DNA of 64,000 nucleotides from Leucoraja erinacea (GCF_028641065.1 NC_073406.1:15252001-15316000), one strand, 5' to 3'. Numbered from the stretch's first letter, positions 17,641 to 46,599 are shown. Notes: generated from the letters alone by a model not told the origin. Program-made: numbers and translations.

Positions 17641-19414
17641 CTTGGACCGTGGCTCAGTTCCCTCCTCCGCCCGAAGCCACGTGCTCTTTGTCCTCCAACA
17701 CCTCGGGTCACGACCGTTCCCTCTCCACTGACGCTGTGCACTCTCGTCTAGGGCACCGTGTGCTCTCTCTTCCGGAGCTGTGCGCGCACTCTCCGCCAGC
17801 ACAGAGTGAGTGCGTTCTCTCCGCCAGCAGTGGGTACGCGCTCTCCCCTCCACTGTGACTACTCCCCTCCAGTACTGTACGCGCTCTCGTCACCAGCACT
17901 CGGGTGAAGAGAGATTGCACGGATGTTCTGCGGTCTCTCAGTAGAGGCGATGGTTGTCTCGGGCTTCGTGCCACCAACCCACTCTTGAGTTTGTCCCAGT
18001 GGCTCAGTCTTGCTCAAACTTGTGGAATGAAGTGTGGAATGAAGTGTTTGTTGGCAACATGGGTTAAAAAATGGTGGTTCAACATCAGAGGGTCATGGTA
18101 CACAATTATCTGGTGTTCCCCAAATGTTTGTTCTAGCACTACAACTTTGATATATAGTAATTAGTTAGTTAAGGTATGTAGGGTAAAGTTTCTAAGTTTG
18201 CAGATGGAAGTCTGGTAAACCATGAAGAGGATGATGGATCAAAGGGGCAAGGCTGGATGGAATAGGCACGCAAGTGGCAGATGAAGTTTCATGGAGAGAA
18301 ATTATACATTTGGCAGAAGGAAGAGATGATATAGACCAGTTTTATAAGGTGTGCGGAAACAGAGGGAATATGTGGAACCAGAAATGTGTAAAAGATCTAC
18401 CATTTGTGGAACAAGTTCATCGGGCAATGGTCTGTGTGGGATGTCCTCAAGACGTGGTGAATCCTACTGAGTAGGAAGGAACTGCAGATGCTGGTTTAAA
18501 TCGAAGATAGACACAAAATGCTGGAGTAACTCAGCGGGACAGGCAGCATCCCTGGAGAGAAAGGATGGGTGATGTTTCGGGTCTGTGGAACGGTCTTGAA
18601 CCGAAACATCACCCATTCCTTTTCTCCAGAGATGCTGCCTGTCCCGCTGAGTTACTCCAGCATCTTGTGTCTATCTTTGGTGAATCCTACTGATAGTCAC
18701 TTGGTAGAATGCCTCATTATTAGGTCACTCAAACAATCTAAGACCGTGGGAAAGGTCCTTCCCCTCAGAGCCTTCGTGCAGTAGGAATCTCACCACCGTT
18801 ATGAGCTGAGTTATAATGGTAGAGTACCAAACTTTCCAGTCGCACCGCAAGACCAGAAACTGCGGCTTTCTGCAAGGACAATGTCTACATTGGAAAGTGT
18901 GTTGGAATGTAAATGTCAGTTCCGTTTTCTCAGTGGAGTGAGACATGCTGATGTCATACAATGTCTGGACTTGAACAAGATGAAGCATGTTGACCTTTAT
19001 GACCTGTAACAATGTGTCTACTGTAACATAATCTGACAAATTTGATAAATTAAATAAAGTTTTGGACAAAATATCATTCACTTGGGCCCAGTCCATGCAC
19101 TCGGCCTGTTGGAGCAGCACCCGATCCAGCTGAGTCCCAGCCTTGTGGGGCCTCCAACAGCCCAGTCCACCATCGATGCAGTGCGCTTCCTCCCGTCGCC
19201 AGTCTGCTCACTGGCCGTCTGTCCGACTCCTTGCACCCTTCAGCGGCATGGGTCTTCGATCCGCGGCGAGCGAACGGGGGCTTCAGGGCAGTTCCAGGAC
19301 CGTGGCAATTCCTGGGCAACCCGGGCGACTCCTCCATCTGCAGCGGACGAGTCCTCGGTCTGCAGCGGGCGCGTCCTCAGCCCTCGGCGGGTGAACCAGG
19401 CCGGTCCTTGGACC

Positions 19415-19785
19415 CAAAGATCTTATAGCGAAGCTTCGCTATAAGATCTTTGCTTGTTATATACATTTATATAATTTTCATGTATGTGTGTTTATAAACA
19501 TTTTATTCCTTAACAAGAATCAACAGAATTATGAACTAACAGAATTATGAATCTAACCCTATAATCACGCACAAAAAGTCCCCCCCTGTCAATCACCCTG
19601 CGAGTCGGGTCGGTTCCGGTTACTACAAAATCAACTCAAACACTGTTTGTGAGCCATTTAAAAAGAAATGATTTAAAAAACATTAAAAAAGACAATTACC
19701 AGAATCAAATTTTGTTCTTGACAAGAAGTTTGAACTGACAGATTTATGAATCTGACCCACACAAACTGTCGCTATAAGATCTTTG
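19415..19785. mobile_element. Duplicate copy of the CAAAGATCTTATAGCGA TIR element
   Basis: Same TIRs and CTTGGACC TSD (19407-19414, 19786-19793), inside duplication copy B. Confidence 0.85.
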
Positions 19786-20439
19786 CTTGGACCGTGGCTC
19801 AGTTCCCTCCTCCGCCCGAAGCCACGTGCTCTTTGTCCTCCAACACCTCGGGTCACGACCGTTCCCTCTCCACTGACGCTGTGCACTCTCGTCTAGGGCA
19901 CCGTGTGCTCTCTCTTCCGGAGCTGTGTGTGTACTCTCCGCCAACACAGAGTGAGTGCGTTCTCTCCGCCAGCAGTGGGTACGCGCTCTCCCCTCCACTG
20001 TGACTACTCCCCTCCAGTACTGTACGCGCTCTCGTCACCAGCACTCGGGTGAAGAGAGATTGCACGGATGTTCTGCGGTCTCTCAGTAGAGGCGATGGTT
20101 GTCTCGGGCTTCGTGCCACCAACCCACTCTTGAGTTTGTCCCAGTGGCTCAGTCTTGCTCAAACATGCGACAGAAGAACATAGCTAGCAGGGAGGCATCC
20201 CACTTCCTATCCATTCCTCTCTCTTCTTTCTTTCTTCCTTCTTTCTTTCATGTTTTGTCTCTCACCTTCTTCCTTCTCTCCTCTGGCTGGACTGCCTGGG
20301 TTTTACAAGGTGTGAACTAATGAAGTTTGGCATAATGGACCTACTGTTACCAATGATGCCGGGAATTAGCCTCTCAGGCAACTGTCAGGCAGTGAAGGGG
20401 ATCAGAGTGGCATCCAATGGAAGGGGCAGTATCACAATG

Positions 20440-25860: not shown

Positions 25861-25921
25861 CTTGGAGTTTGAACTGACGCCTGGGTTCCTGGCACACACG
25901 TGAAAGATGGGATATCCTGAG
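25861..25921 (+). CDS. HVEM-like candidate first coding exon (5' UTR + MGYPE; ATG at 25907)
   Basis: Acceptor gcattttag at 25860, Kozak-like aagATGG and strong donor gag|gtgagt. Phase 0 fits the next exon and completes a signal peptide MGYPEVCCILLLIFNLQLVTS. Confidence 0.55.
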
Positions 25922-28900
25922 GTGAGTTCTTTGGTGCAGTAAACCTCAACAGTTTGTTTCATTACTTTCCTGACTGTAATTGCAGCAGTACTATGATTTG
26001 AATCGGTCTATGTATCATTGTTAAAATTAAATATTTAAATTAAATTAAGAAATGCCATTATATTTGGATGACTTGTCAGGCAACTTTCTCCTGGCTAAGT
26101 ATTAAGAACATCCCATGTCGTGTAACTCTGCCTAGATCAGGTAACAATCCCTCACCATTCTGATAGTAGAACTCAGTAGCAGCTTTGATCAAGATGCTGA
26201 AATGGAGATGCAAGTTGCAGTATAGTGAGGACTGATTGGCTTTTTCAGTTACAGTCCTGTTGTCATATATTCTGCTTCCTTCCCAAAACCTCTGCCCTTT
26301 TCTAATTTCAGTTCATTCTTCTAATTATATTACACGCATCTCTTTGACATGCTCAGAATTTGTCATTTCACTTATGCAGTCTGATTTATACGGATTTATG
26401 GAACATCTCTGCCGCTGCATGATTGTGAAATTTTCAATCAACCTCTTAAATGGTTAAAGATTCAATTGTTATATCTACAGTTTCATAACTTCATGCCTAT
26501 TCCTTGCATACACAGAAAGAAATCTAATCATTTCTTTAAATGGAAAGGATTTGTTTAACTACAGATGGTGATAAAGTGGAATGCTTTAGAAATGCAGGAA
26601 GGCAGAAAAATGGCAAATGGAATATATTGCAGGGAAGTGATGGAGAAGGCAATGGAAGGTTCCCTACAGATCCCCAGATAACAGGACAACACAATAAGAT
26701 AGTTAAAATGGTACATGGGATGTTTTGCTTTGTCAGTCAAAGCAAAGAATATAAGAAGAAGGGTCTGAAGAAGGGTTTCGGCCCGAAACGTTGCCTATTT
26801 CCTTCGCTCCATAGATGCTGCTGCACCCGCTGAGTTTCTCCAGCATTTTTGTGTACCTTCGATTTTCCAGCATCTGCAGTTCCTTCTTAAACAAAGAATA
26901 TTCTTAAGAAGAAGGGTCTGAAGAGGGGGTTTCTACAAGGACCCGAACAGACGTTTTTACCCCATTATCCTTCGCCGCCAAGGAACGAGGGGCTACAGCT
27001 AAGGGACTGTGGTACCCGACTGGAGGGTTTGTGCTCCGTGAGCTTTATTTTTTACCGTGTACTTTCGATTTTACAGTATCTGCAGTTCCTTCTTAAACAA
27101 AGAATATAAGAGTTCGGAAGTGTGCATAAAATCCTGGTCACCATATTACAGGAGAAATGCAATTTCACTGGAGGAAAGTTACAAAAATCATGCTGGGTCT
27201 GTAAAGTTGTAGCTATGGGGAAAGATTGGATAAGAAAATAGAGGCACAAGGAACCGCAGATGCTGGAATTGTGAGCAAAACACAAAGTGCTGGAGTAACT
27301 CAGTGGGTAAGGCAGCATCTGTGGAAGGAATAGACAGGTGATGTTTCTTGTTGAGAATTTTCTTCAGTCTGAAGTAACTCCAGCACTTTGGGTTGTTTGA
27401 TAAGCAAGTGTTGCTTTCTATAGAATAGCTGAAGGGAAACTTAATTAAGCTATAGAAAATGACGAGGGGCTTAGATATGGTGAATAGAGAAGACCCACTT
27501 CCCTAAGCAGAGGGGGTCATAAACCAAGGGCTGAGAATTGTTAAAGGATTAGAAGTGGGTCGAGGAAAACATATTTCACTGAAAATAGCATATAACATTC
27601 ACCTCCTTAAAAGGCTTTAGAGACAGAGGGCCTCCTCAGATTCAAGCAGTACTGGATGTGTACTTAAAGCTGCAAACGTAGTGTTGGAAAATGGGATAAG
27701 ATTGGGGAGTTTTTTTTGAACGACCAAGACATTATGGGCTAAAAGAGATGTCCACATGATGGATTCCTCTGAGTCTCAAGTTTACCATGATTCTAACATA
27801 ATTTGAATATTGCTCAACTTAAAATCTTTTACATCTTATGCAATATATTTTACAACTCTTCCATCATGCTTGTTCAACAAATTTACAATTGCTGTAAATA
27901 TTTTTTAGGTTGACAGAGCTAATATGCAAAAAGCCCTTTACATTAATAGCATATTTAGTGAGCACAAGAGGGGGAGGGGCTAAGAAACAAAACAGCTGGC
28001 ATTTTAGCACCATCCATAACTAGTGATTGTCCAAAGCTCTTTTAACATAGAAATGTACAGCACAGGAACAGGCCCTTCAGCACATAATGTCCATAATGAG
28101 CATGATGCCAGGTTAAACTAATCTTCTCTGCGTGCTTGCACATTATTATTGTATTACTGCCACCAGGCATTATTGCTATTTCTATCTCAATGGTTTGAAT
28201 GTACATTTGACAAATTAATTTTACTGACCATTTTAGCTGTAGTTTTCATAACAAAGTTTAATATTAACCTAAATTATCATCAATTGTTGTGGACTTAGTG
28301 GGCCAAAGACCCTCTTTCTGTGTGGTGCAACTCTGGCTTCTTAGATAGACACAAAATGCTGGAGTAACTCAGTGGGACATGCAGCATTTCTGGAATGACG
28401 TTTCAAGTCAAGACCCTTCTTCAGACTGAGAGTCAGGGGAGAGGGAGTCTAGAGATATGAAGGGGTAAGGTGTGGAACAACATATCAAAGCAGACGTTAA
28501 GGAAATGTAGAATGGTTCATTGTTAACTGAATGGTGACAAGGAGGCATATAATCAGTAAAATTAATCAGTACCGTGAAACTAGTCGGAGAACTAGGGTGA
28601 GCTTCTTGGAGTTGACATGTCAACATTGACTACCGTATGTACAACTTTACTTCAGTAACTAGACCACTCTTACTTGATTATAACTTAAAGTACTTTCAGA
28701 TGCCTTGAGATTGTGGAAGGTGCTGAATAAATGCAGGAATTTCTTTCTACAGTCCAGCTTTACGCAGTCTTCTTTTGATAAAGTAACAGTGGCAAATTGT
28801 TATTTGATGAGTGGAAATGTACAACGCAATAAAATCCAAAAGGAATAATTTTGGGCTAAGTCAAACTCTACAAGGTCAGCACACAAACATAGGTCCACTG

Positions 28901-31900
28901 ATTGCTGTACATAAAAAAATTTGCATCATAAATCAGCATCCTGTATTTAGCAAGCTCCTCTTCCCTTTCTTCAGCCAGACAATGTGGACAGTTATGGTAT
29001 GTTGTTTCTGGATACTAACCCACATTGAACAAAAATTGTTAAGGAACATAATTGGCAACTAGTTTTAAATCTGAAATGTCAACACAATGACTGTCAGTTA
29101 TATGTAAAAATGTAAAGAATTCTGCCATCATTTAATATTTACTACTGATGCTAAATTGTCCCACTGTGCACTATCCTCCAACTACGCTTTCATTCCAATA
29201 ACAAATGTCAGGAGCTCATGGTCTTTATCACATACCTTAAAGCCATCTACTCTGCTGCTTCCCTTCCCTTGATACTGAGCCTAACCTTTTCCAATGTTCC
29301 TCACAGCCCTGCCCTGAACTTCCTTCTTTGCCTAATGTCTTAGGGACTCAGCAACTCCTGATCCTACAAACCTTTTTGCTGATCATTTGGTTCCTCTTTC
29401 TACCCTCCTTGGTCCTGTCCCACTTAGGTGACTCTTTAGGCCAGGGGTCGGCAACCTATGGCCCCCGGGTCGAATGTGGCCCGTAACCTGAAATCATCCG
29501 CTGACGCTGCTCTGAGACCAGTCTGAAGAAGGGTCTCGACCCAAAACGTCGCCTATTACATCACTCCATAGATACCGCCTCACCCGCTAAGTTTCTCCAG
29601 CTTTTTTGTCTACCGTCTTTTCCAGCATCTGCAGTTATTTCGTAAACACACTGTCGGGATTGGGTTGTCAATAGGCCAGGGATGAGTGAGTATGAGTATT
29701 TGAGAAACCACCTTCAGGACAGAGTAGGTGCACCATGTTCATGAGCGCCCGTAACCATCTTTGCCCGTAACTAGGGGCCGGTTCCCCCGGGTGGCGTCCT
29801 CGAATGGGCGGGATCTATGTGAACACGGGATTTGATGCTTGCCATGCGGGGGCGGGATGGAGGCGGAATCCATGTGTACACGTGATAGATGTGGCCCGCC
29901 ATCCGCACACAGACATACATCCCGGCCCCTATGCAGAACATGGTTGTTGACCCCTAGGCGACTGCCAGAGACTAGTTTTAATGGAATTCACCTACGACAA
30001 CCTACGACAGCAAATATTGTCACACTGTCGCCGAAAATTTTTAACGGCAGTCGTCTATAGTCGCCCAAAAAAATCGCCTAAGTGCGACAGGGTCACAAAC
30101 TTTGTTCCCCAGACTATTCCTCACCCTTGTGAGTATATGAATCTGAAGAGGTTTGTTCACATACCATCCAATTCTGACTGAGTTGCAATTTGTTCCACTT
30201 ATGGGCCTGTCCCACTTTGGGGATTTTTCAGGTGTCTACCGACGACTGTCAAGTTGCCGGCAGTCGCCTGAAACAACGGCAACTGGAACAGCGACTGTCA
30301 GAGTGGAGCACACACACACACACAAACACATCGCAAAGGTGGGGGATAGGGCCAGCGGGGGGAGCGCTGTCTGAGCAAAGCCAAGGTGATACAGACACAC
30401 ACCACGATGAACAGAAGGTTGGCGCTGTAATTAAGACGGCTGAAGCACAGTGTACGGTAAGTCCTTTAAAAGAGGGGGGGGGGTAAGAAGGGGGGAGAAG
30501 GAGTGGAGACAGAAGGCAGACAACTTTTATTAAGCCAGAGATACATGGCTGTGAAGCTCGGCGGACATTTAACATTATCGGTCGGTTATCCTTGATTCTG
30601 AAAACTCGTCGATAGCAAAAACAAATCTTCCATTCGTTACTTCTTGATTAATTGGTCTTTAATTGAAGAAATACAAAACAAATAAATAATTCATAACTTT
30701 TCGTTCTTACTGTTTATTCCATGTGGCGTCTTGCGAACATGAACGTGGACGTGGTAAAAAACTGTTGTCCTCACCATCCCTCTACTAAAAATTAAAACTA
30801 AACTAAAAAACTAAAACTAAAATACTTCCAATCTATGAGTCTGTGCTAGCCTCCACAAATGTAGACATGCCCATCTACGTATATAATCCAACCCACAAGC
30901 TAGGAAAAAGGTCCAGAAATACTAACAGTAACTAACCTAAGCATTAATGGCTCCTACAATGTATTTTAAATGATGTCAATGTACTAATCTCAACTACTTC
31001 CTCTGGCAGCTCGTTCCCTCTGCATGAAAAGATTATCCTTCAGTTTCCTATTAAATTTTTCCCTTCTCAAACCTTTGCCTTCCAGTTCATGATTCCACTA
31101 CCTTGTGAAAAAAGACTATGTATTCACCCTATCCATTCGCCCCATGATTTAATACACCCCTTTATGATCACCCCTCCACTTCAGGGCCATGAGTGTGGGA
31201 GGGCTGTGAGAGTGTTTTTGTTAAACTATTCTTCTTTCTATTTAGGTTTGTTGCATTCTATTATTGATTTTTAACTTGCAACTGGTGACAAGCTGTGGCT
31301 CAGATGAATATAATTTTCAAGACCTGTGTTGCTCCATGTGTCAGCCAGGTAAGTGACAACCTTTGCAAATGAATGTTGCACTGCAAACTTCTTACTCTTA
31401 AGCTGTTTAAAAAGTGGATAAGCTATAGTTTTTCTAATACAATTTAATTACATATTTCCCCTTTCAAGCTTTAGCTAAAGTAGTGTTTTTGCACAGATTA
31501 GCATTTCAATATGGGTGCTTTGAAAACAATAAGGTAGAATGATGAAAAGTCCTGGTTTAAAGAATGCCACAACACTGCAACACTAAATCAGACCAAGTAA
31601 GGCTATTATAAAATGCTAACTGCTGGAAGTTTAAAGAAACAATAGAAAATGCTATAAATGCTTAGATGGTCAAGCAGCATATTTAGAGTTGATATAGATT
31701 TAATTTTTGCAGTGGCATCAAATGAATATTTCTCCACAGATGTTGTCTGACTTACTGAGTCTTTCAAGTAATGCGCCAGCATTTTTCTTCTTCTTTTCAT
31801 TACAGGTACACGTGTCTTAAAACACTGCACTGCCACATTAGAGACTATGTGCATTTCCTGTACTCATGGAACTTACATGGATCGTTCAAATGGTTTAGAA

Positions 31901-34900
31901 AAATGCATGAAGTGTAAATATTGTGATGCAGGTAAATATTCATTAACAATTCTTTTATCATGTTTTAATTCAAATGCATTCCCACAAAAGTTCTGTCCGA
32001 CGGTTCGAAGGAATATCTATTTGAATAAAATAAATTATTCATCCAGTCTTTAAAGTTTATTCCTCAACTACTTTGCATGTTTTAGAAAATTTTAACGATC
32101 ATATAGCTGAATGTTTTATAGACGGCAATGGGATGGCAGAGAATATGTAGATTTAGCTTGGCATGTTCAACACGCAGAAATCAAGTTACTGTTAAATTTT
32201 GTTGTTTACAATTGTATGAAATTAGTGTATAGGGTTCTACAGCACAGAAACAGCCCATTTGGCCCATCGCATGCATGCTGACCTTATTGCCCATCTATAT
32301 TAATAACATTTGTCTGCATTAGATCAGATTCAGATTCAATTTTAATTGTCATTGTCAGTGTACAGTACAGAGACAACGAAATGCATTTAGCATCTCCATT
32401 GAAGAGCGACATAGCAAACGATTTGAATAAATAATAATAAGTGTCCGGGGGGGGGGGGGGGGGTGGGTGATTGGCAGTCACCGAGGTACGTTGTTGAGTA
32501 GAGTGACAGCCGCCGGAAAGAAGCTGTTCCTCGACCTGCTGGTTCGGCAACGGAGAGACCTGTAGCGCCTCCCGGATGGTAGGAGGGTAAACAGTCCATG
32601 ATTGGGGTGAGAGCAGTCCTTGGCGATGCTGAGTGCCCTCCGCAGACAGCGCTTGCTTTGGACAGACTCAATGGAGGGGAGCGAGGAACCGGTGATGCGT
32701 TGGGCAATTTTCACCACCCTCTGCAATGCCTTCCGGTCGGAGACAGAGCAGTTGCCATACCATACCGTGATGCAGTTGGTAAGGATGCTCTCGATGGTGC
32801 AGCGGTAGAAGTTCAGGACCATATACTTCCATGCTTTGACTATTCAAGTGCCTATCTAAATGTCTCTCAAAAGTAGTAATTGTTTCTAATTGCATCACTT
32901 CCTCCGGTAACAAGTTCTAGTATCTGTCGAGTGACATGAGAAGTCCATGTTTTGGGTTGGGACCCTTCCTATAAATTGAAAAAGTAGAGAGAAGTGTCCA
33001 GTAGAAAGCGATGTTGGGTGGGAGTGGGTCAAGTGCAACCGAGTGATAAAAAAGCAAAAAAGCAGAATGAAACTGCTAGATTCCAGTATCCACAGTCTCC
33101 TGGCACCACCACATGTAATAAGGGAACTCAAGGTAAGCGAACTGCGAGGAGGTGGTGACCATAATATGATAAGTTTTAATTTGCCATTTGAGAGGGAGGT
33201 TAAATCAGAAGTGTCAGTGTTGCAGTTGAACAAAGGGGACTATGAAGGCACGAGGGAGCAGCTTTCCAAGGTCGACTGGAAAAGGACCCCAGCAGGAATG
33301 ACGGTGGAACAGCAATGGCAGGAATTTTGGGGCATAATCCAGAAGATGCAGGATCATTTCATTCCAACGAGGAAGAAAGATTCTAAGGGGAGTAAGAGGC
33401 AATCGTGGCTGACAAGGGAAGTTAAGGATGGAATAAAATTATAAGAAAAGGTGTATAACATAGCAAAAAGTAGTGGCAAGCCAGAGGATTGGGAAATTTT
33501 CAAATGACAATAGAAGGTAACAAAAAGGGCAATACAGGGTGAAAAGATGAAGTACGAGGGTAAGCTGACCAAGAATATAAAGAAGAATAGTAAAAGCTTC
33601 TTTAGGTATGTTAAAAGAAAAAAATTAGTAAAGACAAATGTGGATCCCTTGAAGGCAGAAACAGGTGAAATTATTATGGGGAACAAGGAAATGGCAGAAG
33701 AGTTGAACAGGTACTTTGGTTCTGTCTTCACTTAGGAATTCACAAACAATCTCCCAGATGTACTCGAGGACAGAGAATCTAGGGAGTCAGAGGAACTGAA
33801 GAAATTTGCATTAGACGAGAAATAGTATTGGGTAGACTGATGGGACTAAAGGCTGATAAATCCCCAGGGCCTGATGGTCTACATCCGTGTACTCAAGGAG
33901 GTGGCTCTAGAAATTGTGTACGCATTGGTGATCATTTTCCAATGTTCTATAGATTCAGGAACAGTTCCTGTGGATTGGAGGATAGCTAATGTTATCCCAC
34001 TTTTCAAGAAAAGAGCGAGAGAGAAAACGGGAAATGATAGACCAGTTAGCCTGACATCGGTGGTGGGGAAGATGCTGGAGTCAATTATGAAAGAAGTAAT
34101 AACGGTGTATTTGGATAGCAGTAAAAGGATTGGTCCAAGTCAGCAAGGATTTATGAAGGGGAAATCCTGCTTGACTAATCTTCTGGAATTTTTTGAGGAT
34201 GTGACAGGTAAAATGGTTGAAGGAGAGCCAGTGGATGTAGTGTATCTGGACTTTCAGAAAGCCTTTGATAAGGTCCAATGCAGGAGATTAGCGGGCAAAA
34301 TTAGACCACATGGTATTGGGGGAAGGGTATTGATATGGATGGGGAATTGGTTGGCAGATAGGAAACAAAGAGTAGGAATAAACGGGTTCCCGTCAGAATG
34401 GCAGGCAGTGGCGAGTGGAGTGCCGTAAGGTTCAGTGCTGGGGCCGCAACATTTTACAATATATATTAATGATTTAGATGATGGGATTAAAAGTAACACT
34501 AGCAAATTTGCAGACACAAAGCTGGGTGGCAGTGTGAACTGTGAGGAGGATGCTATGATAATGCAGGGTGACTTGGACAGGTTGAGTGAGTGGGCAGATG
34601 CATGGCAGATGCAATATAATGTAGATAAATGTGAGGTTATCGACTTTGGTGGCAAGAACAAGGAGGCAAATTATTATCTCAATTATGTCAGATTAGGAAA
34701 AAGGGAAGTGCAACGAGACCTGGGTGTCCTTGTACACCAGTCACTCAAAGAAAACATGCAGGTACAGCAGGCAATGAATAAAGCTAATGGCATTTTGGCC
34801 TTCATAACGACAAGATTTGAGTTTAGGAGTAAAGAGGACCTTCCACAGTTGTACAGGGCCCTGGTGAGACCACATTGTGTGCAGTTTTGGTCTCCTAATT

Positions 34901-37900
34901 TGAGGAAGGACATCCTTGCTATTGAGGCAGTGCAGCGTAGGTTCACAAGGTTATTCCCCGGGATGGCGGGACTGTCATATGAGCAAAGATTCGAAAAACT
35001 GGGCTTGTATTTACTGGAATTTAGAAGGCTGAGAGGGGATCTTATGGAGAGTTGTGAATTTGTGGAATTCTCTGAGTTCTGAATTTGTGGAATTCTCTGC
35101 CACAGAAGGCAGTAGAGGTCAATTCACTGGATGAATTTAAAAGAGAGTTAGACAGAGCTCTAGGGGCTAGCAGAATCAAGGGATTTGGGGAGAAGGCAGG
35201 CACAGGTTACTGATTGTGGATGATCAGCCATGATCACATTGAATGGTGGTGCTGGCTCGAAGGGCCAAATGGCCTCCTCCTACACATATTTTCTGTTTTT
35301 ATGTTTCGGTGTTTCACTCAGTTACACCTTTTTGTCCTATCAGAATCCACAATCTGCAGCCTCTTGTTCTCCAACTATCACCTCCCAGCCCCCTATTGCT
35401 ATCCCCATCCTTCCCTCCTCCATGTGTTTTCTGCTAATCTACCATTCCGACGCAAGAAACTGCAAATGCTCGAATCTTGAGCAAAAAACAAGATGGCGGA
35501 GGAACTTGTCGGGTCAGGCAGCATCTGTGGAGGGAACTGATGTTTTGGATCGGAACCCTTCTTCAGACTGATTCTCACCCGTGTCCACCTATCACTTGCT
35601 AGTTCTTGTCCCACCCCTATCAGCACCCCTTCCCCTTCACCTCTTACACTGACTACTTCTCCTCTACTGACAGTCTAGATGTAGGCTCGAAATGCCAATT
35701 GTCTATTTCCCTCCACAGATGCTACCTGACCCACTGAGTTCCTCCAGCTGCTCTTAATTTGCTGCAAAAAAAACACCAGGTTCTTCTAGCCATTAATTCT
35801 AAGAGCTAAACTTTTGTTCTTTCATGTTTTTTGCAATGTACAGTTTTTAATACAATGTTTGATATGGGCTGACAGAAAATTTAATTTGAACCTGATTGTG
35901 TTTTAAATTTTAGAGTTGGGACTTGAAACTCAACGAGAGTGCAGTGAAACTCAGGACACTGGGTGTGAGTGCAAAGAAGGATATTTCTGCTTGGCAAAAA
36001 CAAAGGACAAATGCCACATGTGTACAAAATATATCACACATTTTTTGAATGACAGTAAAACTGATAAAGGTATGTTACTAAATTGGTGATTTGTCAGGCA
36101 AGTCACACAGTAACTGGATATGCATGTCGAACTGGTGCAAATAGATTCTGGACCCCTTCTGGTGCCAATTAGCAGAAATGTACAGGGGAAAGCCCAAATC
36201 CACCGCAGAATTCAGGTCAATTAAAAACAAATTGCCTATGCTATGCTAAACAAAATTCACATTTCAGTGCCATAGATGCAAAGTAAATGCAAAGTGCTGC
36301 TATCTCTTTAAAAAGCATAGCTGAGAATGGAGCATTATGAAAACCTGGTTTCCTGTGATTGCCCACAATATTCACAAAGCAGAGAAGTAACCTAATTTCA
36401 CATGCAACTGCTCCAAAGGAGATGTGCAGAAGTATGTGAGCTTTTGATGTGCATGCGAAATACATAACTTCTTATATGCACAATTGTACCCTGTAGAATT
36501 TCCTGATTAAATTTTGTGAATACACAAGTCACCCAGAATTACTCTGTTTCCACAACTACAACTGTGCGATATTTATAAATGTGGAGCCAAGAAAATACAT
36601 TTCTAGACCGTTGTTTGTTTTCCTGCATCTCTCAAACAGCGCGACTCAAATTTACAGGGATTACTTTCCATTTGAAACATAAAAGCATTACACGAGAATA
36701 CATTTCCTTCATCAGTCCTTCTAGAAAAATGGTTAACACCCACTCACATAGAAGGGCACATATAATCGAGTTTAATGACAGTCACAATATTAAGTAGCAA
36801 TACTGATATTTAGATACATATAACACAATAGGATTAGGAAATTGTAAAGAGAAATCTAACTATCATAACCAATTAAAAAAAAGTTGGTTTCCAGACATGA
36901 TACGTCATATTACCTAGTAATACTGATCATTTGGAGGCACAAGGAACTGCAGATCGTGGTATCTTGCGTAGAACACAACATGCTGGACTAACACAATGAG
37001 TCGGGCAGCATCTCTGGTAAAACATGAATAGGCGATGTTTCAGCTCGATACCCTTCTTCAGACTCCTCCGAATGATAACATTGTGTTATTGGTTATCATA
37101 TATTTATTTGTTGTATTCTTGTGTTAATGTGCCTGTAAAGCTGCAACAAGAATTTTATTTTATCATTAGGCTCAATTCTACTTGCTTTACATTAATTTTT
37201 TTTTAATTCCAATCTAGGTGAATATGACAATTGACTATATGAAAATTAAATACCCTTAACTCTATGTGTTAGATACCATTTACAACGGGCGTTGTACAAT
37301 AGGTTCAATTAATGGGTGTACAGACTGAACTTATTATCTTTTTCTAATTTGGTGTTTTTATAATCCTGATTAAAATATCCAGAATGATAAAATTGCCTTC
37401 AGGGATAGCAAGAAAAGATATTCCGATGTCCAAATTTACACCAAATATTGGTCAACTAAACATGTCACAATGAAAGCTTAATGAGTTAACATAGTGCACT
37501 GCAGAAATAGTTTATTTGAAAATATTGGTCGGTGTCGGCCGCTACACTTATTAATTATGAACTAAAAACCTGGAAGAGGACTGCTCATCCGCCCAGCTTA
37601 CCCTTGAGTAAATCTGCATCATGATGGATGGCCAACACATCTAATGCTGATTAGTGTGTTCATTTCAAAGTATGCTTTGCGACAGATATTGATCCCAAAT
37701 ATTGTCAATTAATCAACACAAGGATAAAGACAGCAAGAGCCAAGAGTGTTTAATTGTCATATGCACCATGAAGAGAACAATATAAATTCTTACCAGCTGC
37801 AACTTTACAGGCACATTAATGCAATAACACAAAGTGTATAATCAATAATAACAATAAAATATCAGTTATACTAAGTAACTAGACCATAATAGTTCAAACT

Positions 37901-39662
37901 GCATAGTGCAATCTATTAAAAAGTTTATTGTACTTCATTGCTGAGTTAAGGTTGCGCCCTGTAGTTTGAGAGCCTGATGGCTGAAAGGAAGAAACTATTC
38001 TTGAACCTGGAGGTAGCAGATCTCAGCATCTTGTTCCTTCTACACTATGGTAGCAGCAAGATAAGGCCATGGTCAGGGTGATACAGGTCTTTGATGATAT
38101 TAGCTGCCTTCTGGAAGCAGCACTTCCTGTAGATTCCATTGACAGCCGTGAAGTTGGTGCAGACGGTGGATTAGACAATGTTTACATTTTTGGCAGCCTG
38201 CTTTCTTTGTAACCTTTGTGTTACCGTGCCAGGCCGTGATAGAATCAGTCAGTATGCTTTGTACTGTACACCTATAGAAGTTCAATAGAGTATTCAGTGA
38301 CAAGCCAAATCTTCTCAAACCTGAGGAAGTAGAGGTGTTGGTAAAATTTATTTGTGCATCAATGTGCTTGGCCCAGGATGGACCGTCAGATATGTGCATA
38401 CCCAGGAGCATAAAGATGTTGGCTCACTCCATCGCCGTCCTCCATACTGTATGCGACCATCCTCACTCATTGCAATTTTCTGGAGAAACAATTCTACTCT
38501 AACAGGTTTATAGTGGTCCCACCTCATTAGTTGCAATATTCAATATTCAGACTGTAAAGAAAATTAACAGCATGACAATATTGTCTTCACAATATTTCAG
38601 TAATTTCTGACCTATAAATACAGAAATGCATTTATACAATTGGTTTTGATCCCAAAATGCATTACAGTCAATGAAGTGTAATTGAAATAGAAAAAGCTAA
38701 ATTAATAATGATATGAAGTTGCATGAGGAATATATAATGTCCAGGTAACCTGGGATATCTCCCTTCTTTTTCTCCAAAATATTAGAATGTATTTGCTTAC
38801 ATTCTCTCAGTAGGACCTCAATTTAACATTGTATTAACCATACCATTCATATTGGTAACACGATCATAATTTTAGTGCACATTACTAACTTTACTGCTTT
38901 CTTTAACCAAACGTAGGTGACCTCAAACAACAAGCAGCGAAACCAACAGCACAGTCTGTACTTACTCAAGCCAATGTTAAACCTATGGAGCCAGATGGTA
39001 CACAGAATCCATTGCAACCTGTGAACAAAACCGTGAGAAGGAAAACTATTCCTAAATCAGAAACAGACAAACTCCTGAAATGGGAGTTAGCTCCAGAAAC
39101 ATCCGCAGGAAAGTCCAAGGTTGCACGTGTGCAGGAGCCGGCAACAATAAGAAAGACACTAATGACACTGATACAATCAATTGATCAGACATTTCCTAAA
39201 GAATCTTTAAAGCTTCAGGAGGCAGGAAACAAAGTTCTTACAGAATTTCAAAATAGTGTGCAGACCAACTTGGGGAACATGCAGAATGTAATGCAGGTTG
39301 GGCTGGCAGATATACAAAATTCTATTCAATCTAGCATGGCTGGCTTGCAGGGCACTATAAAAACAGGCATGGAAGAGATTAAGAGTGCACTGCAGACAGG
39401 AATGACTGGCATTCAAGAAGCTTTAATTTCCGGGATGACTGAAGTCAAAGGCATAAAAATTGGTCTCACTCTGACTGATAATACTCTGAAACAAATACAG
39501 GCAAATTCACAATCTAACTTGGTACTGATGACCAAACAGCTTGGTTCACTCGTCAATGTATTGACCAAGTCTCCCTCAAACCAGACCATCCCCTTCATCC
39601 AGTTTAAGGATATTATTTGTAATAAAGCTGAGACAATAGAGCAAACAACAAAGCAACCTTAA
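25907..39662 (+). CDS. TNFRSF14/HVEM-like protein, predicted secreted, with hendecad coiled-coil tail, 381 aa; join(25907..25921,31246..31348,31806..31931,35914..36069,38917..39662)
   Basis: GT-AG exons with phases 0,1,1,1 give 1146 nt open. HVEM-type CRDs (CGSDEY..CCSMCQPG; GTYMDRSNGLEKCMKCKYCD; ECKEGYFC...CHMC). No transmembrane exon was found. The first and last exon assignments are inferred from splice signals and frame only. Confidence 0.7.
26755..27105 (+). mobile_element. PLE pseudo-LTR insertion followed by a heavily degraded tandem copy, within a CR1 fragment
   Basis: Clean copy at 26762-26895; indel-riddled copy at 26910-27100; caaagaatat(aag) occurs at about 26743, 26892 and 27098. 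Confidence 0.65.
29410..30095. mobile_element. Harbinger-type MITE containing a nested hAT element
   Basis: TIRs TGGTCCTGTCCCACTTAGG and CCTAAGTGCGACAGGGTCA, interrupted at 29442. Confidence 0.65.
29442..29956. mobile_element. hAT (Charlie-like) non-autonomous element with nested PLE fragment (about 29519-29650)
   Basis: TIRs CAGGGGTCGGCAACC and GGTTGTTGACCCCTA; subterminal tggcccg repeats. Confidence 0.65.
30202..30610. mobile_element. Truncated Harbinger-type MITE
   Basis: TTA followed by TGGGCCTGTCCCACTT left end. The body is related (reverse complement) to the interior of 52095-52788. Right end not found. Confidence 0.55.
31246..31348 (+). CDS. HVEM-like exon (signal peptide + start of CRD1)
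   Basis: ctttctatttag|VCCILLLIFNLQLVTSCGSDEYNFQDLCCSMCQP|gtaagt. Confidence 0.9.
31806..31931 (+). CDS. HVEM-like exon (CRD1/CRD2)
   Basis: cattacag|GTRVLKHCTATLETMCISCTHGTYMDRSNGLEKCMKCKYCDA|gtaaat; resembles HVEM GTY..NGL.KC..C..CD. Confidence 0.92.
32323..32817 (-). mobile_element. Rex1/Babar LINE 3' fragment
   Basis: [23 protein letters not shown]...[19 protein letters not shown]; (TCTGAA)n tail. Confidence 0.85.
33115..35305 (+). mobile_element. 5'-truncated CR1 LINE (decayed ORF2 with reverse transcriptase)
   Basis: GDHNMISF, DRPVSLTSVVGKMLE, VDVVYLDFQKAFDKV, GVP*GSVLGP, SKFADTKLGG; multiple stops and frameshifts; CR1 3' UTR. Confidence 0.92.
35914..36069 (+). CDS. HVEM-like exon (end of CRD2 + first module of CRD3)
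   Basis: aattttag|ELGLETQRECSETQDTGCECKEGYFCLAKTKDKCHMCTKYITHFLNDSKTDK|gtatgt; 156 nt, phase 1 to 1. Confidence 0.9.
37735..38470 (-). mobile_element. Old Rex1/Babar fragment
   Basis: LLGMHISDGPSW...LRRFGLSLNTLLNFYRCTVQSILTDSITAWHGN. Confidence 0.7.
38917..39662 (+). CDS. Terminal exon of the HVEM-like gene: linker + 11-residue-repeat amphipathic helix
   Basis: Branch-like tactaac, pyrimidine tract and tag acceptor at 38916. Phase 1 is in frame with the 225-aa ORF 38985-39662, and the frame stays open for 746 nt in AT-rich surroundings. Confidence 0.72.
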
Positions 39663-40584
39663 GTCACCTTTCTAGCCCATGAGACAGAGTTCAGTTCAGT
39701 TTCCAGCTGTGCATAATGTAATATACTGAGCCGCTGATGTATTTTACAGTGGCTCAGCCTGCAAGCCAAAGCATGCATCCAACACATTTCAAAAATGAAA
39801 AAAAAAGCATAATCCTTTCATTTGCATCCTGGTATATACTTGACTTTCATTTTTGCAGTTTTTTTTACAATATTACTAAACTATAAAACTTCCTTTTGTC
39901 AACATTTTTCTTTCAGTTGCCATACTAAAAATAACACGTTAATGAAACCACATACTTGAAGAAATAATTATCTTGATTATCTAAACATCAAGCTGATAAT
40001 CATGGCAATGTTTTCTAAATTTATATTTCTTTCTTTTTGATTTTTCATAATGAAGCATTTAATTACACATTCTACTTACATTTCTAATTATACACATATA
40101 ATTACATTTTTCTAGTGTAAGAAGAATTTAAATTCCCAGTTTGGCAGCATAACTTCATCTTTAATGAAACATGGGATTCGAAAAGACTACCAAGAGCAGG
40201 ATTGCTGCATAAATGTGACTGAGCCAATGTTCAGAACAAGGTCAGTTTAGTTATTTGGAATGTAAGACTGGGATAGGAGTATAGGAGGGATTTCTCTTTG
40301 CAAACAAAATATTCTCACACCAATCATTAATTACCAAGGACACCATGTCTAGTTTGTTTCAAAACAACCCGAAGTGTGGACCATCTCAATCATTGGAAGT
40401 TTTACAGGATAGGGATAGGGATGATTTTCCAGAGCTCGAGAAAAGCTAGAAGTCTTGTCATTATATTTATCCAGCCTTGAAACTGGACAACCGATATGGT
40501 GGATTTAATTTATTTAGTCTTTATGGTAAAGGCAGACCAATCTCAAAAACAAAAGCTACTTTTCTCAGAAAGGAGAGAAAGATA

Positions 40585-40665
40585 CAAAGGCAGAGAGAGA
40601 TGGAGAGAGATAAAGAGAGACAGAGACAGAGACAGAGAGACAGACGGAGACAAAATCAGAGAGGG
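40585..40665. repeat. GA/GACA-rich microsatellite
   Basis: gagagagatggagagagataaagagagacagagacagagacagagaga... Confidence 0.8.
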
Positions 40666-41315
40666 AGCCGAACATGAGTTTTATGGTTACTCTGTGGAGG
40701 CCAAGTTAATGGATATTTTTACTGCGGAGATTGACAGATTTTTGATTAGTAAAGGTGTCGGGAGTTTTGGGGCGAAGGCAGGAGAATGGAATTGAGAGGG
40801 AAAGATAGATCAGCTATGATTGAATGGCAGAGTAGACATGATGGGACGAATGGTCTTATTCTGCTTCTAGAACATGAGTTTTTGAGTGCGTGTCAATAAT
40901 ACATAAATGATCATAATAACTCGTGTGCTGTGCTGTTTCACATATGATTTTCCTATATTGGAGGCATATCTTCAATTCAATACAATTTAATACCAGAATA
41001 ATATAGTTGCCATATCATGATTAAAATATAAATCTTAAAATGGCATAGCCCAAGAATGTACTTTGTTACATGAAATCATGTTTAGCATGATGTAATAAAA
41101 ACTTGCTTGCACTGTACAACAAGCAAGAGAGGAATATTGCCTGATAATATGTGCTTATAATAAACCCGATTAGTCCATCATGTGTCTTATGCATTCTATT
41201 CTAACCTGAAGAAACTGTAAAATTAAAAGCAAAAGCAAAATGTTCAGCATGTCTGCATGTTATTACATTTTTATTGTAATTTTGGATTTATAGTCAAGCA
41301 CCTACTGCACGGCAC

Positions 41316-42857
41316 ATTCAATTCAATTCAACTTTAATGTCATTGCACATATACGAGTATGGGTACAACGAAATGCAGTTTAGCGTCAGTCCATAGTATA
41401 GTGCAATATAGAAATAAAAATAAAAATACGGAATAATCAAACAATGTGGACAGAGAGACTGGAGAAGTCTATCGGCGGGACTCCGAGTTCAGCAATGTGA
41501 TGGCATTATTGTAGAAGCTGTTCCTCATCCTACTGGTACGAGACCTGAGGCTCCTATACCGCCTCCCTGATGGGAGGAGGGCAAACAGTCCATGGTTGGG
41601 GTGGGAGTCTTTAATGATCTTCCCGGCCCGTCTCAGACACCATTTTCGGTGGAGGGCATCCATGGCAGGGAGCGGGGCACCGATGATGTACTGCGCGGTT
41701 TTCACCACCCGTTGTAGTGCCTTCCTGTCCGCTACGGTGCAACTGCTGTACCATACCGTGAAGCAGGTGGTCAGGATGCTTTCGATAGTACAGCGGTAAA
41801 AGTTGGTCAGGATCTGGGGGGACAGGTAAGCTTTCTTGAGCCTCCTCAGGAAGTAAAGGCGCTGCTGCGCCTTTTTGATCAGCTTGGAGGTGTTGAGGGA
41901 CCAGGACAGATCCTCCGAGATGTTTACCCCGAGGAATTTGCAGTTGGAGACGCGCTCCACCTCGGTCCCGTTTATATGGATGGGGATATGTCTGCCCCCT
42001 CTGACCTTCCTGAAGTCAACAATAATTTCCTTCGTCTTCTTGGAGTTGAGGACGAGGTTATTGTTGGCACACCAGGTTGTCAGGTGCTGGACCTCATCCC
42101 TGTAGGCTGACTCGTCGTTGTCACTGATCAGTCCTACCACCGTGGTGTCGTCGGCAAACTTAATGATGGCGTTGGAGCCATTCTTAGGGATGCAGTCATG
42201 GGTGAAGAGGGAGTAGAGGAGAGGGCTGAGCACACAGCCCTGAGGCACGCCGGTGTTCAGTGTTATAGTGGAGGAGGTGAGGTTGTTGACCCTAACAGAC
42301 TGCGGTCTGTTGGTGAGGAAATCCAGTGTCCAATTGCAGAGGAAGGTGGAGATGCCAAGTCCGCTGAGTTTGGTGATCAAGCTGGCGGGGATGACAGTGT
42401 TAAAGGCGGAGCTGAAATCAATGAACAGCATCCTGATGTAGGTGTTATTGCTGTCCAGGTGGGTCAGGGCCGATATGGCATCCTCTGTAGACCTGTTGGT
42501 CCGGTAGGCAAACTGATGGGGGTCCAGTGTGGGGGGGAGGCTTGCTTTGAGGTGAGCCAAGATCAGCCACTCAAAGCACTTAGCAATGACAGGGGTGAGT
42601 GCCACTGGGCGGAAATCGTTGAGACTCCCTGTGGCTGCTTGTTTGGGCACTGGCACAATGGTTGATGTCTTGAGGCAAGTGGGGACAACACCCTGGGCCA
42701 GTGACAGATTGAAAATGTCAGTGAGGACTGGGGATAGTTGTCCAGCACATGCCCTGAGCACCCGCCCGGGGATGCCATCGGGGCCGGCAGCTTTGTGCTC
42801 ATTCACCTTGCTCAGTGCATCTTGTACAGCAGCGGTGGAGAGACTGAGGGGTTGTGC
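41316..42857 (-). mobile_element. 5'-truncated Rex1/Babar LINE with open reverse transcriptase ORF
   Basis: 474-aa ORF 41469-42893 with [42 protein letters not shown] and [10 protein letters not shown]; (TGAAT)n tail. Confidence 0.93.
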
Positions 42858-45800
42858 AGAAATAATGATGAAGGATTGCAAAAACAAACTCAACCTTGCC
42901 TCGTCTCTTTTCCACTGTTCTCCCCCACCCCTCTAATGGCAATGGTGTATTATTTATCCAATGGGTTGAAGATCAAATGATTTTGTGAACAGAGTGCCAC
43001 TCCTTCAACTTCACTTCACAGACGAGAAAAAAAAGGATCAATGCTGTTACAGCGTGAACGTAGTAGTTTGAAACTGCTTAGCCATTTCATATATCTGTCA
43101 AGTCAAACGATAATGGCGCAAATTTGAAATCACCTGTAGCCCAGACCATGTAAACTTGATAGGTCTGAACTTGATAGGTCATCCGTCTGAAGAAGGATTT
43201 TGGCCCGAAACGTTGCCTATTTCCTTCGCTCCATAGATGCTGCTGCACCCGCTGAGTTTCTCCAGCTTTTTTGTGTAACCTAAACTTGATAGGTATCTGA
43301 AGGACAATTTGATGTTTTTAATACATCTTCTATGCTATGTCTTTCATGGAGGATATGATTGGACCAGCTGTTAAGGTCTTAAATAAACACTTCACCCAAC
43401 CATTGCAAAGATAACAATTCCTTGATCTCAGCTAGAGGATAGCTAGAGAAAGTGTACCTTCCCACAGGGACTAATGGGGAAATATATGTGTGGAGTCACA
43501 GGTTATGAGTGAGGTCCTAAATGTCTCAACAGTATTCACTTGGAAGAAGATATGGAAATAGAGTTATGGGAGGGAAATGCTGATATTAAGCTAGATAAAT
43601 CAACAGGACCTAATGCTATTTTTGAATGCTTCAGTAAGCAAGGTAGGAGATTGCTAGGGTTCTTAGGCAGAATATTTTCATCTTTGATAGTCTCGGAAAA
43701 TGTCCAAGAAAAATTGAGGCGATCAAATGCTGTCCCCTCTTCTGATACTGTACAACAAACAGGAGAAGAATGTTGCTTGATATGTACTCATAGCAATAAA
43801 CCATATATAAGGTGTCTTCTGTAAAGTCCCAGACTATCCAAACTCTTGCTGTAACTCAAGCACAGGTAAAATCCTGATGAATTTCTTCTGCACCCTTTCC
43901 AACCTAAAGACATCCTTCCTGTAGTTGGGTGTCCAGAAATGCAAAAAAGTGTGGTCTCACCAACGACTTGACCAGCTGCATCATGATGTCCCAATACTTG
44001 TACTAAATCTCCTTCCCAATGAAGGCAAGCAATCCAAAAGCCTTCTTCACCACACTCCCCACCCGACATGATTTTTACGAAACCATGATGCACCTGTACT
44101 CTTAGATCTCTCTGCTCTGCTCTGCAACACTCTCCATTTTCTATGTAAGTTCATCCCTGGCTCAACATTTCATACCTGGCAGAGTTAAATTCAATTTGCC
44201 ATTCCTTAGCCATCTTTGCAACTGATCTAGATCTTGTAGTCCAACAAAAAGACGGCCCTGCTGAGCTTTAAGGGGACCTATTCTTTCTCCCGTCACCTTT
44301 TCTTTCTTAATATACTTGTAGAATTTCTTGGACATTTTGCTTCACCTTGCCTGCCTGCCCCATGTCATGTCTACCTTTTGCCTCCCAACTGCTTTCTTAA
44401 GTGTACTCTGACACTTTTCATATTTGCGGATTCACTTGCCTAAATCTGACATGGGCCTTCTTTTTCCTGACCAGTGTCAACATTCTCATCAACCAGGGTT
44501 TTCTAAACTTACCAGTCTTGCACTTCATAGACTGCCCCTATACTCTTGCTATCTCACTTTTGATATTCTCCAACTTGCCAGATGTCCCCTTTACTTGTAA
44601 ATAGGCTCTTTCACTGAACCTCTGCAAGTTCCTGCCTAATGTTTTCAAAATTGATCTTGCCCAATTTAAGACTTTAACATCTGGACCAATCCTATCGTGC
44701 TCCATGAATTACAGTTATTGGTTCCAAAGTGCACCCCTGACAATGACACTATCGTCAAGGACGCCCACTATCCAGGCCATGCCTTCTTCTTGCTACTACT
44801 GTCAGGTTGTGGGTAGATGTCTTTAGTCCCACACAACTAGACACAACTGCTTTCCTACAACCATCAGGTTTGTGAACCGTCCTACACAACCCTAATCCTA
44901 CTTTGGCAGAAGAACACCACAGAGAACCTTTTACATTATGGTGAATCAGCATGAAGAAGGGTCTCGACCCGAAACGTCACCCATTCCTTCTCTCCAGAGA
45001 TGCTCCCTGTCCTGCTGAGTTACTCCAGCATTTTGTGTCTACCTTCAATTTAAACCAGCATCTGCAGTTCTTTCCTATATATTATGATGGACTTGCCTTT
45101 CAATTGTGTTTTGAATTGTCTTTTTTATTGAAGTCATTTTTCCCCACTGTCTTTTATGTGTAATTTATGTGCAATTTATCTTTTTGCGTATATCTGAGAC
45201 TCTTACTGCTACATGTAAGATTTTAATTGTACCTGTACCTCGACATGAGGTATTTATTAAATTTAAAATATATATTTATTAAAATGTGTTTACTATATAG
45301 TATCTACATGTATTACAGACCAATTATGTTGCCACAAGTAATAATTTCATTGTTCTGTTGTTGACACATGACAGTTAAGCGCTCTTGACTAGAGGACGGG
45401 GAGGGAACAGAGCGACAGGAGTGTAGTAAGAAAGGTGTACGCGGACGTGGAAAGAAAATGTGTGGGGGTGGCTGGGTTGATGAGAAGGAGGGGTAGATGA
45501 AAAGGACATGGACTGTTTAATTGAAATTGGAGGCATTCATTGGTGGGTACAGCAACATTGAAGTGGTGAAATTTAATGCAGGCTACCCAAATGTAATACA
45601 AGATGGGTGTTCTACCAGTTTGCTTATGCCTTAACTCTGGCAGTAGAGGATGTCAAGGTCAGACAGGTCAGTACAGGAAGAGGAACTAAACTTTTGTGGT
45701 AGCAGTTGCCCAGTCTGCACTTGGGAGTCATAATCATTTAGCATGGAAACAGGCCCATTGGCCAACTTGCTCACACAGACCAAGATGTCCCATCTACACT

Positions 45801-46599
45801 TATCCCATCTACCTGTGTTTTGGTCCATATCCTTCTAAACCACTCCTGTCCAAATGTCTTTGAAATGCTGTTAAAGTACTTGTCTCACCTACTCACTATC
45901 CTCCCTCTGTGCCTCAGATTCCCTTTACATTTCCCCCTCTCTCCTTAAACGAATGTTCCCTGGTTCTTGATTTCCCTACTCTGTACATTCACCCTATCTA
46001 TTCCCCTCATGATCTAATACCCCTCTATAAGATCATCCTTCATTGTTCCATGCTCCAAGGAATGTAGTCCTAGCCCACCCAATCTCTTCCTATAACTCGG
46101 GACCTCAAATTCTGCAAACATCCTCATCAAAAATTGAGGGAGCCACATTTAAGAGCAATGGGCGAAATTGGAGGAGGTTCATGTAAACTCCCAACAGGGA
46201 GAATGTTTCCCCTGGCTGAACAATCTAGAACCAGGATGACAGCAACAAAATAAAGAGTATTCCTTTGATCTGACGTGAGGAGAAATTTCTTCCGAGGGTG
46301 GCGAATCACACTGCATGTGGAAAGTTGTGGTGGAAGCGAAGTCACCGATTACATTCAAAGTTTAGATCAATAGATTACTACGTAACAAGAGTTTGATGAG
46401 ATGTATGGAAAGTGCGGGGAGACTGTACTGAAGTAAATCACCATCTTGGTGGATAATGGCGGCGGCGGCGGCTCCTCATTCTTACACAATGATGCCCAGC
46501 GGACACTTCCTCTGACTAATTTATCGCCTTTACCTGAAAGGCATCGTTCACGTCAGGTCTTTTCCAACTTTTCCGTTTCCCGTAATATGCGCATTAAAC

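Follow-up and report, generated by a model that had tools for sequence, protein, structure and literature searches.

Can an HVEM-like TNF receptor gene end in a coiled coil rather than in a membrane anchor, and what might such a protein do? This question is raised by a locus of Leucoraja erinacea (NC_073406.1) lying in a stretch of 64,000 nucleotides, all of which was analysed and which is referred to below as the window. A sequence-only reading of this DNA had proposed a chimeric protein of 381 residues, in which the head of an HVEM-like receptor is followed by an 11-mer repeat tail. The exon chain bears this architecture out: five exons with AG/GT borders join in frame to 381 codons and one stop codon, the last of them (38917-39662, 746 nt) being entered in phase 1. 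The resulting protein is identical to RefSeq XP_055514990.1 (Leucoraja erinacea), labelled TNFRSF11B-like, a record that was predicted from the same DNA and thus provides no independent support. The locus comprises the following features:

25907..25921, + strand: exon 1, with the start codon, residues 1-5 and a phase 0 donor; shark orthologs have the same N-terminus
31246..31348, + strand: exon 2 (103 nt), with the hydrophobic core of the predicted signal peptide and the start of CRD1
31806..31931, + strand: exon 3 (126 nt), which completes CRD1 and encodes the greater part of CRD2
35914..36069, + strand: exon 4 (156 nt), with the end of CRD2, the four-cysteine first module of CRD3, a cysteine-free end and a phase 1 donor
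38917..39137, + strand: exon 5, linker, residues 134-207, Ser/Thr/Pro-rich and predicted to be disordered
39024-39032, + strand: conserved linker sequon N170, with a basic cluster after it
39138..39569, + strand: exon 5, helix, residues 208-351, predicted to be continuous
39258-39455, + strand: six clear 11-residue repeats, hydrophobic at a, e and h, with d mostly glycine
39570..39662, + strand: exon 5, polar C-terminal part, which contains sequon N355, the stop codon and, as the one unpaired cysteine, Cys368 (39618-39620)
41094..41164, + strand: candidate poly(A) signals, the first two downstream AATAAA hexamers

Exon 2 matches exon 2 of the membrane-bound skate paralogs in size, phase and N-terminal hydrophobic run and is 74% identical to its shark counterparts; we infer cleavage of the signal peptide near residue 21/22. 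Exon 4 carries the four-cysteine CRD3 module and ends in phase 1, as had been read, but the accompanying view that this exon is cut short did not hold, because its donor (AAAG/gt) is the same as that of exon 4 in the paralogs. In its last 15 codons the next cysteine is lost and the N-glycan sequon N127 is present. The absence of a membrane anchor was confirmed by hydropathy: the Kyte-Doolittle 19-residue mean after residue 30 peaks at only 0.92, so that the 381-aa protein has no membrane helix, and a window above 1.29 after residue 35 occurred in none of the 26 family proteins. Likewise, as the sequence-only reading had stated, no further CRD or membrane exon follows exon 4, since none resembling the CRD4 and membrane exons of the skate membrane paralogs was detected in 36070-46820 (best tblastn E 0.93); the next gene downstream of exon 5, presumably CCNL2, is located at 46820. 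A hydrophobic run at about 37068-37125 was rejected as a membrane exon, because the acceptor at 37062 is in phase 0 and unreachable from the phase 1 donor, and the hydrophobic windows at 39822 and 45115 were rejected for showing no likeness to the membrane exons of the paralogs. The combination of a predicted signal peptide with no membrane anchor, which marks a decoy TNF receptor, was found by hydropathy in the 26 family proteins and by homology of the N-terminal exon to that of the membrane paralogs.

The acceptor at 38917 had been described as the next strong one, which proved incorrect: with 9/15 pyrimidines it is moderate, and it is preceded by seven acceptors with at least 11/15 pyrimidines, each opening a phase 1 frame of at most 19 codons. 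The splice therefore needed outside support. As judged from sequence comparison, the evidence for the 36069^38917 junction comes from orthologous and transcript-derived sequences and not from the strength of the site. Two Logan contigs (1578 and 2456 nt) each carry a frame of 349 residues that starts at Met36, runs to the stop codon and covers exons 2-5 with the junction residues intact. Among the 24 sequencing runs listed, no RNA run was recognised as containing the locus and three presumed RNA runs had small shares, which bears on expression in neither direction. Since exons 2-5 span 8326 nt in the genome, these contigs must be spliced; exon 1 lies outside their coverage, because they begin at Met36. 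Their proteins are 98-99% identical relatives of the skate protein, and the gene has a single locus in the Leucoraja genome, which argues against a retrocopy. In addition, the CRD3-to-tail junction is present in 22 of the 26 family proteins. The acceptor at 37218, considered as the entry to an alternative exon and even as the only partner of exon 4, was rejected because only five codons are open behind it and it is used in none of the family proteins.

Linkage of the tail to the HVEM-like exons in other chondrichthyans, which the sequence-only reading had named as a check, was found in the form of the same layout in 13 named species, namely two skates and eleven sharks (Pristiophorus, Heptranchias, Heterodontus, two Chiloscyllium, Hemiscyllium, Rhincodon, Cetorhinus, Carcharodon, and two Scyliorhinus); the frame is open across seven orders of sharks and skates. 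Identities between the skate protein and 9-10 shark proteins amounted to 65% for CRD1, 64% for CRD2, 83% for the CRD3 module, which is the best-conserved part, 41% for the linker, and 60-73% for the helix, indicating that the tail helix is about as conserved as the CRDs. Cys368 is kept in all 11 aligned proteins that reach that position. Sequons N127 (10/11) and N170 (N-x-T; 12/12) are kept amid poorly conserved surroundings, a pattern that is expected for a secreted chain, while sequon N355 also occurs in three out of four probably cytosolic relatives of the tail module and is therefore no sign of secretion. Both lamniform models are incomplete: that of Carcharodon departs from the layout by ending inside the helix (315 aa), and neither Cetorhinus isoform contains the full CRD set, one of them skipping exon 4 and thereby losing CRD3 while keeping the tail. 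A chimaera or bony-fish version was found neither in two tail searches nor among 1.84 billion representatives, only one of which passed 1e-30; these representatives being clustered at 50%, such a version could be hidden among them. Altogether, the comparisons indicate that the gene is real, old, and constrained across sharks and skates.

By analogy with OPG, whose action would here be achieved with different parts, we lean, by a modest preference, towards a secreted oligomeric decoy for a ligand of the TNF family. The signal peptide would route the chain into the secretory pathway, and no segment would anchor it in the membrane. With eight disulfides, residues 22-118 are expected to adopt the folds of CRD1, CRD2 and the first module of CRD3, corresponding to the whole footprint of HVEM for LIGHT, whereas residues 208-351 would form a parallel 11-mer coiled-coil rod of about 21 nm, probably of two to four chains and perhaps locked by Cys368. 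Given a flexible linker, several CRD heads could then grip one ligand trimer and withhold it from the membrane-bound HVEM-like receptors. The rival readings are taken up below in falling order of probability.

The linker comprises 74 residues, and the 11-mer amphipathic repeat behind it, which the sequence-only reading had recognised, was recovered quantitatively. Over residues 247-312, the hydrophobicity period peaks at 3.67, with an amplitude of 1.03 vs. 0.20 at 3.5; repeat positions a, e, and h are hydrophobic in 90-100%, k in 37%, and the other seven in at most 12% of cases, and position d is occupied by glycine in 57 out of 71 cells. The tail thus shows the hendecad pattern, with its 3.67 period and a core of a, d, e, and h. 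In the AlphaFold monomer a single helix extends over residues 208-351 (144 residues) with low confidence (mean pLDDT 41, helix blocks 48-71, pTM 0.20), and a three-copy complex prediction for residues 200-375, run without an alignment, yielded a score of 0.13 and a mark of 0.32 and was given no weight on either side. The mature chain has 16 other cysteines, Cys368 being its seventeenth. Neither the tail nor the related module of an Ig-domain membrane protein described below had a usable feature match in the protein atlas, all structure rows having a TM below 0.5; weak PDB matches of the tail profile to PI-SceI/V-ATPase and to a helicase were taken as chance.

Narrow hydrophobic stripes are typical of 11-mer coiled coils, and 11-mer helices also bind lipids, the 11/3 periodicity being shared with the helices of apolipoproteins, perilipins, and synucleins. 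The tail might accordingly be an amphipathic helix of the apolipoprotein type, through which the head attaches to lipoprotein particles, vesicles, or membranes, and multivalency would then come from display instead of a coiled coil. We consider this improbable. Besides the periodicity, it can draw on a helix rich in small residues with a net charge of +2 and on the best Pfam match of the tail, Apolipoprotein (PF01442; E 7e-6), but this match reaches only 26.3 bits against a cut-off of 90, the narrowness of the stripe suits helix-helix packing better, and the module has relatives within the gene of a TRIM ligase and following a multi-pass membrane protein.

The HVEM-like nature of the N-terminus, also claimed from the sequence, is well founded. 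The PF00020 match scores 44.3 bits (cut-off 29.4), and all 55 PDB sequence matches are TNFR-type proteins or viral TNFR homologues. Human HVEM is the relative of known structure that matches best, with 87 bits, an ungapped alignment over residues 20-123, and the same cysteine spacing, followed by CD40 (70 bits), OPG (46 bits), and DcR3 (43 bits). In this alignment residue n of the skate protein corresponds to HVEM n+20, and the HVEM fragment crystallised in 2aw2 (108 residues) has the same extent as the skate head. The available passages of PMC8558838 place the LIGHT contacts of HVEM between CRD1 and residue 139, exon 3 including the stretch that matches contact residues 85-100. As HVEM residue 139 corresponds to residue 119 here, the whole LIGHT-contact span lies inside the kept part.

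Within this span, the LIGHT-side residues N88, G89, L90, and D100 of HVEM are kept in 9, 7, 8, and 7 out of nine orthologs, respectively. H86 is kept in only four of the nine and the positions of Q95 and Q97 are lysine in 12/12, so that LIGHT binding is not to be assumed. On the side facing BTLA and CD160, G72 is kept in one and V74 in none of the nine orthologs. With the LIGHT side partly kept and the BTLA/CD160 side mostly lost, a ligand of the TNF family, which need not be LIGHT, appears more likely than an Ig-family partner. According to the accessible part of PMC11762692, TNFSF14 exists in sharks; the same part describes the TNF ligand set of Leucoraja as reduced, which counts against the decoy reading.

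The oligomer might, on the other hand, act as an activator, either cross-linking membrane TNF ligands in the sense of reverse signalling or engaging a BTLA/CD160-like Ig partner. Agonism of such partners had been put forward by the sequence-only reading and is poorly supported by the residues just described; we regard an activator as distinctly improbable. CRD1 is intact, having all six cysteines, and conserved to the degree given above, and the contact of HVEM with BTLA and CD160 is, in the passages of PMC8558838, largely a main-chain strand pairing that tolerates side-chain change. However, changing both G72 and V74 abolished BTLA and CD160 binding in mouse HVEM according to these passages, BTLA and CD160 appeared as mammal-specific by the method of a genome survey (PMC13262535, in part), and shark BTLA or CD160 was not found in the literature passages. 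A title cited in a reference line of PMC11599192 states that BTLA-like genes are present more widely.

Membrane-bound HVEM-like receptors of the skate are encoded by a cluster on the same contig at 23.15-23.44 Mb, about 8 Mb from the window (15.25-15.32 Mb). The cluster contains at least five gene starts, three of them with CRD4 and membrane exons in the stretches examined, and has exon sizes of 103 and 126, exon phases and the exon 4 donor in common with the gene studied here; exon 3 of these paralogs also has HVEM as its best match. The CRDs of the skate gene are only 39-47% identical to those of the cluster, and in a CRD tree of 16 rows, which contained no mammalian reference, the four membrane paralogs formed a clade of their own (99/100), with five out of 13 inner branches open. 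These data point to a separate, slowly evolving paralog, in which the CRD4, membrane, and TRAF exons were replaced. The simplest history that we infer is a duplication followed by the replacement of everything after exon 4: an HVEM-like duplicate likely captured a phase 1 last exon at the existing exon 4 donor, before the split of sharks and rays.

Pre-ligand assembly through CRD1 is known for several TNF receptors, and the paralogs would offer partners for it. The product could thus be a ligand-free dominant-negative, whose CRD1 pairs with membrane paralogs or which is retained in the secretory pathway and holds a receptor or ligand there. The number of paralog starts on the contig and the Cetorhinus isoform that lacks exon 4 and CRD3 and retains the tail are in keeping with such a role, to which we give a slim chance, because the CRD3 module, which contacts ligand in HVEM, is the best-conserved part and because the 381-aa protein has no KDEL-like or hydrophobic C-terminus. 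Finally, an artefact of the gene model or a decaying pseudogene, with the last exon as a separate unit, is very improbable and largely refuted, since the modest acceptor, the known tail-only products (two Logan proteins of 225 aa and one Cetorhinus model), the incomplete lamniform models, and the predictive nature of RefSeq XP records are outweighed by spliced contigs and family proteins that carry the junction, by a frame open across sharks and skates, and by a helix more conserved than the linker.

The preferred decoy reading leaves the source of the tail to be considered. A representative search with the tail returned 45 proteins, of which 17 were scanned with Pfam and 10 looked up by name. 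Among those examined, the matches in many stretches came from 11-mer repeats without relation to the tail, for instance those of phage tape measures and paralemmin-3. An Ig-domain protein of sharks and rays, which has about five hydrophobic segments, accounts for four single-stretch matches (59-68 bits); the module would be cytosolic in this protein and is absent from one Narcine isoform. A third relative was found in an extended reading of one exon of a TRIM8/MID2-like gene (the skate and two shark models). These relatives of the tail helix in unrelated shark genes, encoding an Ig-domain membrane protein and a TRIM ligase, are new here; like the existing RefSeq model, the membrane-bound genes elsewhere on the contig and the conserved spare cysteine, they had escaped the sequence-only reading. 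The register-shuffle control proved lenient, three out of eight unrelated 11-mer controls beating all 200 shuffles, and reliance was therefore placed on the non-repeating C-terminal third of the tail. With a profile of this third, six relatives scored 7.5-17.9 bits, values reached by 0-2 of 200 shuffles and by one out of eight unrelated controls. Homology of the three modules, in the receptor, the Ig-domain protein, and the TRIM gene, is thus suggested with moderate confidence.

A similar build is seen in the Myb/SANT-like genes of the skate, whose last exons are large, mostly in phase 1, and encode an amphipathic helix behind a Ser/Thr/Pro linker. Such genes (Harbinger Myb-like, of the MSANTD/NAIF1 kind) derive from Harbinger transposons and were repeatedly domesticated in jawed vertebrates, as stated in the available passages of PMC9392472. 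Their last exons share the build and mostly the phase of the tail exon, but in sequence they resemble it only weakly (10-18 bits; hhalign 42%), to no greater degree than unrelated 11-mer proteins do: the similarity lies above most shuffles, yet is matched by unrelated controls. A module match under E 0.01 was obtained in one out of 15 Myb/SANT loci, a Myb domain was detected neither upstream of the C16 exon, which is related to the tail exon (60 kb covered), nor upstream of the C3 exon (40 kb covered), and none of 40 neighbourhoods (at most 10 kb each), chosen among the 151 matches listed, had the module beside a Harbinger transposase. Origin of the tail module from a Harbinger transposon is thus conceivable, though doubtful. 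The wider account, in which at least three unrelated genes of the shark-ray ancestor (those of the HVEM-like receptor, the TRIM ligase, and the Ig-domain multi-pass protein) each acquired on their own the same mobile, transposon-derived exon for an 11-mer coiled coil, and in which this exon turned the receptor into a secreted, disulfide-locked, multivalent checkpoint decoy, seems to us unlikely; if true, the immune system of elasmobranchs, and no other, would possess a natural fusion of receptor and zipper. A putative oligomerisation exon that otherwise unrelated genes of sharks would have in common offers a testable case of exon capture.

In comparison with known systems, HVEM (TNFRSF14) resembles the skate protein most closely in sequence, cysteine spacing, and LIGHT-footprint span, but the latter has no CRD4, membrane helix, or TRAF tail and differs in several contact residues. 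DcR3 (TNFRSF6B), likewise a secreted decoy, consists of four CRDs and a short tail that binds heparin, with no long coiled coil, and is only a distant match to the skate head. Its ligands in the available text of PMC6001812 are LIGHT, FasL, and TL1A, the class expected for HVEM-like CRDs. The second comparison concerns OPG (TNFRSF11B), described in part of PMC9464236 as a secreted TNFR decoy that forms a disulfide-linked dimer via its C-terminal part and Cys400. A signal peptide, CRDs, the lack of a membrane anchor, and a late C-terminal cysteine are common to OPG and the skate protein; however, the skate CRDs are much closer to HVEM, amount to two and a half against four in OPG, and, unlike in OPG, no death domain was found in the skate protein by Pfam. 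The RefSeq label TNFRSF11B-like is, by these comparisons, misleading. Engineered receptor-Fc and receptor-zipper fusions (HVEM-Fc; PMC11841141, in part) likewise combine an ectodomain with an oligomerising unit, from which the skate gene differs in being natural and old and in using an 11-mer helix. The protein is one that would act like OPG or DcR3, is a member of neither, and is not HVEM proper.

No description of this architecture was found in the full-text literature covered, which leaves out most subscription papers. OPG and DcR3 are the two secreted TNF receptors of mammals, according to the accessible part of PMC6001812. If the decoy reading is true, an HVEM-like head with a coiled-coil tail, kept across sharks and skates, would be a third secreted TNFR design, and the oldest living adaptive immune systems would have evolved a soluble brake of their own on TNF-family signalling. 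With the misleading label corrected, a concrete protein is available for expression and testing. In the plasma proteome of the nurse shark, the available passages of PMC9207270 list one uncharacterised protein with TNFRSF3-like as its top match, and this TNFR-like plasma protein may bear on the secretion proposed here.

The predicted helical tail of the probably secreted HVEM-like protein, encoded by its last exon, also has a homologue in a skate TRIM8/MID2-like gene, one exon of which continues in frame into this sequence, and weaker relatives were found in two long open exons elsewhere in the skate genome (G000):

L002:1297-2253 (contig C11), minus strand: TRIM8/MID2-like gene exon with the tail-helix homologue
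L049:1114-2097 (contig C16): long open exon, linker and weakly related helix, 29 bits
L025:133-1896 (contig C3): long open exon, linker and weakly related helix, 28 bits

Two sharks conserve the TRIM-borne homologue at 56-58%. In the TRIM isoform annotated for the skate, just the first part of the module-bearing exon is used. In the 60 kb upstream of the C16 open exon and the 40 kb upstream of the C3 one, no Myb domain was found. A further module copy, optional and C-terminal, is carried by an undescribed shark and ray protein (P0035-P0038 and P0075-P0077) encoded outside the window, featuring one Ig domain and about five hydrophobic segments in an arrangement that, judged by eye, suggests a CD47-like layout. 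A skate ortholog of this protein's module was looked for and not found.

Several Myb/SANT-like genes of the skate (loci L053/L072, L054/L073, L057/L076, L059/L087, and L060/L079) form a small family; their last exons have in common a G-P-A-F-K-R-R-like motif before a helix, and no Pfam family match was obtained for the four out of five scanned. In the Scyliorhinus orthologs of the HVEM-like protein (P0019-P0026), a charged four-residue repeat of varying length extends the C-terminus beyond the conserved cysteine.

At least five tandem HVEM-like genes were located on the same contig as the window (C30, 23.147-23.44 Mb; loci L003-L011 and L026-L039), the second of them containing a stop inside exon 2. 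The window itself contains a second TNF-receptor gene, together with transposon remnants recognized by eye:

about 2736-14852, plus strand: complete membrane-type TNF-receptor gene, upstream of the HVEM-like gene
7001-7126, 8599-8701, 10319-10391, plus strand: its CRD exons
near 12766-12890, plus strand: its TM exon
4190-5227, plus strand: broken transposase-like frames, in its first intron
33850-35082, plus strand: reverse-transcriptase-like LINE fragment, intron 3 of the HVEM-like gene
41469-42932, minus strand: reverse-transcriptase-like LINE fragment, downstream of the HVEM-like gene

The upstream gene encodes a signal peptide and, in its last exon, a P-E-Q-E motif; it presumably resembles the TNFRSF9/18/4 kind, and a search with one exon gave no clear family assignment. 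Two almost identical tandem copies of about 2.1 kb lie at about 15900-18000 and 18040-20160, visible both as paired ORFs and by eye.
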